Assembly: GCA_031520405.1 (NCBI GenBank)
Contig: GCA_031520405.1_4842.1
From: a phage
Direction: 5' to 3' (one strand)
Length of the DNA stretch: 64,000 nucleotides
Below the pieces are notes generated by a model. The model had not been told where the DNA came from and searched no databases. It saw only the letters and a list, made by a program, of their open reading frames with translations. Made by a program: the position numbers and the translations under genes. Below, one piece after another: positions 34,684 to 35,106 of the stretch. Numbering within the stretch: the stretch's first letter is position 1; each line of letters starts with the position of its first letter.

Positions 34684-34750
34684 ATCCCCAACGTTTGTTG
34701 GGGATTTTTACTTTTAGGGGTTTACTTCTATAAGGCAAATGCGTATTATT
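34684..34750 (+). repeat. regulatory cassette copy 1: terminator hairpin + early promoter (PeSL-like)
   Basis: CCCCAAC-GTTT-GTTGGGG hairpin, T-run, -35 GTTTAC (34720-34725), -10 TATTAT (34744-34749); near-identical copy at 35040..35106. Confidence 0.5.
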
Positions 34751-34798
34751 GAATTCATCGGGCGGGGCGTTCCCGTTCATTGAAAGAAGGTATATATT

Positions 34799-35029
34799 AT
34801 GTCTGCTGTATCACGCGTTGTTGACCTCACCCCATTTTGCCTGAACAATATTGCTAACCCTAAATTGGTATTGTTTAAAGATCCCTCTAATTTCTGCTGG
34901 CTGGCAAGTTGTGATACCCACAACGGACGTCGTGCTGTTTGGGAGTTTCCCGCAACTGATGAAGGTAGAATTTCCGCTATAAGAAAATTAGAACTGGAAA
35001 ATTCAAGCCGAGAAATTAAACAGGCATAA
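34799..35029 (+). CDS. hypothetical protein (76 aa) flanked by duplicated cassettes
   Basis: ORF with GAAGG RBS. Confidence 0.5.
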   Translation: MSAVSRVVDLTPFCLNNIANPKLVLFKDPSNFCWLASCDTHNGRRAVWEFPATDEGRISAIRKLELENSSREIKQA

Positions 35030-35039
35030 CTTTTATTAA

Positions 35040-35106
35040 ATCCCCAACAAACGTTGGGGATTTTTACTTTTAGGGGTTTACTTCTATAAGGCAAATGCGT
35101 ATTATT
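35040..35106 (+). repeat. regulatory cassette copy 2: terminator hairpin + early promoter (PeSL-like)
   Basis: identical to copy 1 except hairpin loop is reverse-complemented (AAAC vs GTTT); -35 GTTTAC 35076-35081, -10 TATTAT 35100-35105. Confidence 0.5.

Follow-up and report, generated by a model that had tools for sequence, protein, structure and literature searches.

The DNA examined here, a 64-kb stretch from a Kuttervirus (Ackermannviridae) referred to below as the window, contains two copies of an intergenic cassette that flank a single accessory gene, ORF76. Each cassette consists of a predicted intrinsic terminator followed by a putative promoter. The best explanation of the locus, which we hold with considerable confidence, is that the cassette is a composite linker, that recombination between its copies drives loss of the module and conversion of one copy by the other, and that the loop of the hairpin inverts by a separate, neutral process. 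As a linker, the terminator would end transcription of the upstream gene, and a sigma-70-type, T4-early-like promoter directly after it would drive the next small gene.

The order of genes and linkers at the locus is (5′ to 3′) VWA protein, acyl carrier protein (ACP), cassette 1, ORF76, cassette 2, ORF79, D2a, Alt-like ADP-ribosylase, D2b and ORF92. The ACP gene, both cassettes, ORF76, ORF79 and both D2 linkers lie on the plus strand. The stop codon of the ACP gene (34360–34677; Pfam PP-binding, phrog_4154) precedes cassette 1. ORF76 (34799–35029; 76 aa; phrog_22629) is accessory, and ORF79 (35157–35396; phrog_804) is a conserved gene usually served by a single cassette. Pfam returned nothing for ORF76 or ORF79, and an Rfam scan of 33000–37500 gave no match. 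Linker D2a (35403–35467), which comprises a hairpin, an RBS and the first codons of a gene, forms the left edge of a variable slot occupied by the Alt-like gene; D2b (35962–36026) is the right edge of this slot and also of a block of high identity between genera. The window is about 98% identical to phage CBA120 over 64 kb, and at the cassette locus identity is at least 99% between the window and Se_AO1, JN03, SPTD1 and CBA120.

The original prediction described duplicated cassettes of 67 bp. A repeat search over the whole window bears out the duplication and corrects the length to 71 nt (34684–34754 and 35040–35110), with ORF76 bracketed by the two copies as had been proposed. No direct repeat in the window is longer than this pair, and the three longest repeat families are all intergenic linkers of this kind. 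The window contains the 45-nt core of the repeat exactly twice, and 100 shuffles do not contain it at all. The copies differ only at the 4-nt loop and at one G/C position (34751/35107). The loops, GTTT at 34693–34696 and AAAC at 35049–35052, are exact reverse complements of each other, in agreement with the original prediction. The G/C difference was considered as a mark of distinct crossover end-points, a reading that was dropped because this base lies at the centre of the palindrome TTATT[C/G]AATAA and the difference might be a flip in its own right.

The 11-bp palindrome has 13 matches in the window at no more than one mismatch (2.2 expected), and the octamer TTCAATAA is observed 19 times (4.5 expected). 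Exact copies of the palindrome lie at 15574, 35102, 41034 and 51667, and it is found within promoter spacers at 15591, 51694 and 57538; most matches lie between genes and on the coding strand. In cassette 2, the palindrome (TTATTCAATAA, 35102–35112) overlaps the −10 hexamer, and in cassette 1 it is disrupted. The motif is a candidate for a regulatory or promoter element that has so far gone unrecognised.

Both cassette hairpins have a G+C-rich CCCC/GGGG stem of 11–13 bp followed by a T-tract (a U-tract in RNA), with predicted folding energies of −16 to −19 kcal/mol (z about −4). The hairpin of cassette 1 (34676–34713), a predicted intrinsic terminator, has the stem ATCCCCAAC/GTTGGGGAT, and that of cassette 2 (35038–35069) has an 11-bp stem. 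The predicted stem-loop, stable and with polyG/polyC tracts, has the form expected of the terminator in promoter-early stem-loop (PeSL) elements, and the intergenic spans that hold the cassettes, 121 nt (34678–34798) and 127 nt (35030–35156), also agree with PeSLs. The putative promoters (34720–34749 in cassette 1 and 35076–35112 in cassette 2) read GTTTAC, an 18-nt spacer (type A in cassette 1) and TATTAT. GTTTAC is a −35 of the T4-early type. Both copies can equally be read as TTTACT-17-TATTAT (that is, TTTAC-N18-TATTAT), and the hexamers then match the consensus at only 9 of 12 positions with a 17-nt spacer, a likeness to sigma-70 promoters by sequence only.

Among 31 distinct cassette sequences, TTTAC, TATTAT and the spacing between them are invariant, the 18-nt spacer has four or more widely differing versions, and the stem carries a compensatory change (CAAC/GTTG to CAAT/ATTG). 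Invariant hexamers and spacing, together with covariation in the stem, are the pattern expected from a working promoter and a working hairpin, from which we infer that the cassette is an intrinsic terminator plus a promoter. In LIMEstone1 (NC_019925; PMC3296691), the element is annotated as a putative factor-independent terminator and a putative early promoter; this annotation, the invariant hexamers and the covariation all support the terminator hairpin, the −35 GTTTAC and the −10 TATTAT of the original prediction as predicted elements. The early promoters of CBA120 were reported not to be identifiable by informatics (Kutter et al., 2011; PMC3184105), a literature search yielded no useful transcriptome or TSS data on Kuttervirus or the Ackermannviridae, and a 2024 review of the Ackermannviridae leaves promoters unmentioned. 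The locus provides a conserved candidate early promoter.

About 218 phage records, from several genera, have the cassette after their ACP gene, usually in one copy; a pattern scan of IMG/VR contributed only nine more loci. ORF76 (phrog_22629) is found in 32 phage records and has a patchy distribution (Kuttervirus, Agtrevirus, Taipeivirus and one Yersinia phage). About 24 of these records are among the 221 that share the neighbourhood, and the flanked gene is variable among relatives. Over the 2 kb at 33900–35900, CBA120 shows no substitutions relative to the window and only a 356-bp gap (34684–35039), which removes one cassette and ORF76. The same clean 356-bp deletion is found in PM10, with one substitution relative to the window, and likewise in Se-G and others, and these losses of one cassette plus the ORF substantiate the earlier proposal of a recombination-ready module.

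The spacer has two main alleles, A and B. In pertopsoe, CAU_YEP3, ZQ1, SW16-7, pSal-SNUABM-02, L012 and the metagenome contig L034, spacer A occurs with the ORF76 5′UTR and spacer B with the ORF79 5′UTR (A/B). The window, SJ3, Se_AO1 and KE31 are A/A, Det7 is B/B, and in CBA120-type genomes the only cassette carries spacer A and precedes the ORF79 UTR. This distribution of alleles indicates that gene conversion has probably taken place between the copies. Conversion, followed by deletion through recombination between the copies, would be the simplest history, with its direction set by parsimony. ORF76 and its own cassette would form a self-contained module adjoining the cassette resident at ORF79. 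Since about 70 nt are common to the two cassettes, phage homologous recombination could excise the module and leave one chimeric cassette (the CBA120 state), and could also homogenise the copies by gene conversion (A/A in the window and B/B in Det7).

The duplicated arrangement could also stem from a plain tandem duplication of a gene with its upstream region, in which case ORF76 would be a diverged copy of ORF79 and there would be no mobile module. The 5′UTR/RBS regions of ORF76 and ORF79 do share short motifs (e.g., TTGAAAG..ATATnATG). However, the two proteins are unrelated (BLASTP E = 0.26, on which their paralogy was rejected), the two cassettes carry different spacer alleles in many genomes, and the ORF76 protein is 100% identical across genera in which the flanks are about 65% identical, all of which makes tandem duplication very unlikely. 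The preferred reading, a cassette-bounded module, does not extend to every relative. In Klebsiella phage Magnus (L030, 1090–1450), a promoter-like GGCTTTACTTCTTCAATAA but no terminator hairpin accompanies the ORF76 homologue that comes after the ACP gene, and the ORF79 homologue is placed directly behind this gene without a second cassette; thus, the module boundaries are not universal.

Comparison between genera places changes of identity at the same linkers. Relative to the Agtrevirus pSal-SNUABM-02, identity is 45–85% in the VWA and ACP genes, 96–100% from cassette 1 to D2b and 30–45% beyond; across genera, the rise at cassette 1 is from about 65% to 96–100%. The high-identity block stops at D2a in the comparison with pertopsoe and CAU_YEP3, and Det7 shows the reverse pattern of high and low identity. 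The D2a/D2b repeat pair, which spans a hairpin, an RBS and initial codons (MTDQ), lies on either side of the Alt-like ADP-ribosylase gene; in relatives, this slot holds denV, another ORF or nothing. The D2 linker is kept no matter which gene occupies the slot after it (an Alt-like gene, denV, ORF92 or a 375-nt ORF). Related but distinct cassettes lie in the window at 15591, 51694 and 57538, and two gene replacements between the window and CBA120 begin at the ATG just after those at 15591 and 51694. Not every indel between these two genomes is bounded by a cassette, given the homing endonuclease gene (phrog_314) at 44592–45314 of the window, which is absent from CBA120, and the extra orf136 of CBA120 at 36762, which has no obvious flanking repeat.

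The segments 15591–15669 and 51694–51772 form a 79-nt repeat of 72% identity that spans promoter, 5′UTR and RBS, and CBA120 has unrelated genes in place of those that follow the two copies. At 15585–15615, the −35 lies inside a hairpin.

Under the preferred explanation, the linkers that bound module loss would also serve as crossover points for exchange between genera. A broader proposal, which we offer tentatively, is that a few conserved intergenic linkers (terminator–promoter cassettes and hairpin–RBS linkers) might serve the Ackermannviridae generally as points of exchange by which ORFan modules pass from one genus to another, perhaps via excised mini-circles, and that the enriched TTATTCAATAA/TTTACTTCTTCAATAA motif overlapping the cassettes could be the family's early/middle promoter or a regulator site.

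Inversion of the hairpin loop is recurrent. Over 1.6 kb (34283–35881), Se_AO1 differs from the window only at the four loop bases; the cassette 1 loop, GTTT in the window, is AAAC in Se_AO1, SPTD1 and CBA120. Exact-word searches found GTTT in about 30 records, GGTTT in about 16 and AAAC in 62; AAACC, the reverse complement of GGTTT, is present in STML-13-1 and phage 241, and L012 has the loop arrangement opposite to that of the window. These states require at least four independent flips at this hairpin. The hairpin inversion suggested by the original prediction is thus seen in many independent genomes and includes a 5-nt form (GGTTT/AAACC).

The loop difference, like the absence of ORF76 from some genomes, might instead be an artefact of assembly or sequencing at the repeat or hairpin. 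The GenBank records SenALZ1, selz, SenASZ3 and SeTs-2 start inside the cassette, where assemblies probably break, and JN03 and SPTD1 have a one-base homopolymer difference in the stem. Nevertheless, the two orientations are seen across dozens of independent records and are exact reverse complements in every case, with no intermediates, the deletions are contig-internal in many independent assemblies, and typical reads are longer than the 71-nt repeat. An artefact is therefore highly improbable, and the flips and deletions are taken as real.

Other hairpins behave similarly. Exact inversions relative to CBA120 occur in terminator-like hairpins at 477–496, 13302–13323 and 58145–58148 (loop pairs TTAT/ATAA, CGAA/TTCG and GGTT/AACC), and a near-inversion (GTTT/AAAA) occurs at 51685–51688. 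When the 36 perfect hairpins that can be aligned to CBA120 are compared, 30 show no change, 2 an inversion and 4 some other change. The TGAT loop of the D2a hairpin showed no flip among 25 loci, so flipping is not uniform across hairpins. The stem AACCCCGC/GCGGGGTT is shared by three terminators (6947–6966, 13302–13323 and 30194–30214), and the loops at 6947–6966 and 13302–13323 are oppositely oriented.

Such loop inversions have an established explanation in template switching across inverted repeats (PMC8794818). At this locus, template switching during replication across the perfect inverted repeat would invert the spacer as an event separate from module recombination and neutral in effect, and it would recur at many terminator hairpins. 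Alternatively, the loop might be inverted with regulatory consequences, either as a programmed switch or as a by-product of a phage enzyme that acts specifically on hairpins. In favour of this, flips are frequent relative to point substitutions, and the phage encodes an SbcCD-like gp46/47 nuclease. Against it, a recombinase could not form a synapse on a spacer of only 4 nt, the predicted RNA stability is the same in both orientations, flips occur at several unrelated terminators, and no invertase gene lies nearby. We consider a programmed or enzyme-specific origin quite unlikely and favour neutral template switching.

Several uses follow from the locus. It supplies natural before-and-after genomes for cassette-mediated gene loss, as well as safe insertion sites for engineering biocontrol phages of this kind. 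In phage phylogenies and in quality control of assemblies, loop flips and repeat-bounded indels should be counted as single events and not as multiple substitutions.

Three known systems can be set beside this locus. The LIMEstone1 element (NC_019925; PMC3296691) is orthologous and also lies downstream of the ACP gene, but it is single-copy, has a type-B spacer and lacks ORF76. The loop flips share with template-switch (quasipalindrome) inversions (PMC8794818; PMC8604942) the exact reverse complement, the perfect inverted arms, the kept length and the recurrence, all of which were found here; the present cases differ in that they lie in phage intrinsic terminators and that their rate stands out between genomes that are about 98–99.7% identical. 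The third system is the PeSLs of RB49, phi1 and other T4-like phages (PMC2839356; PMC4122927). Both have a stop codon, a G/C stem-loop, a sigma-70-like promoter (putative in the cassette), an SD and an ATG, both flank an ORFan that some phages have and their near-identical relatives lack, with the empty site keeping a single chimeric cassette, and both mark mosaic boundaries. This likeness comes from sequence comparison, with mini-circles and promoter or terminator activity as predictions. Unlike PeSLs, which number about 50 in RB49 as a dispersed, high-copy family concentrated in hyperplastic regions and have TTGACA as their −35, the cassette here occurs once or twice per genome, alongside only three or four loosely related cassettes in 64 kb, and its −35 is the T4-early type GTTTAC. 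The PeSL comparison made in the original prediction stands for architecture and behaviour, with two corrections: the phage belongs to the Ackermannviridae and not to the T4-type Straboviridae, and the cassette is essentially single-locus, not a dispersed high-copy family. None of the papers in the literature searched links PeSLs with the Ackermannviridae. As an example of modular evolution in phages, the locus is ordinary but well documented: it joins a PeSL-like cassette, in a family without described PeSLs, to a neutral template-switch inversion of its loop.
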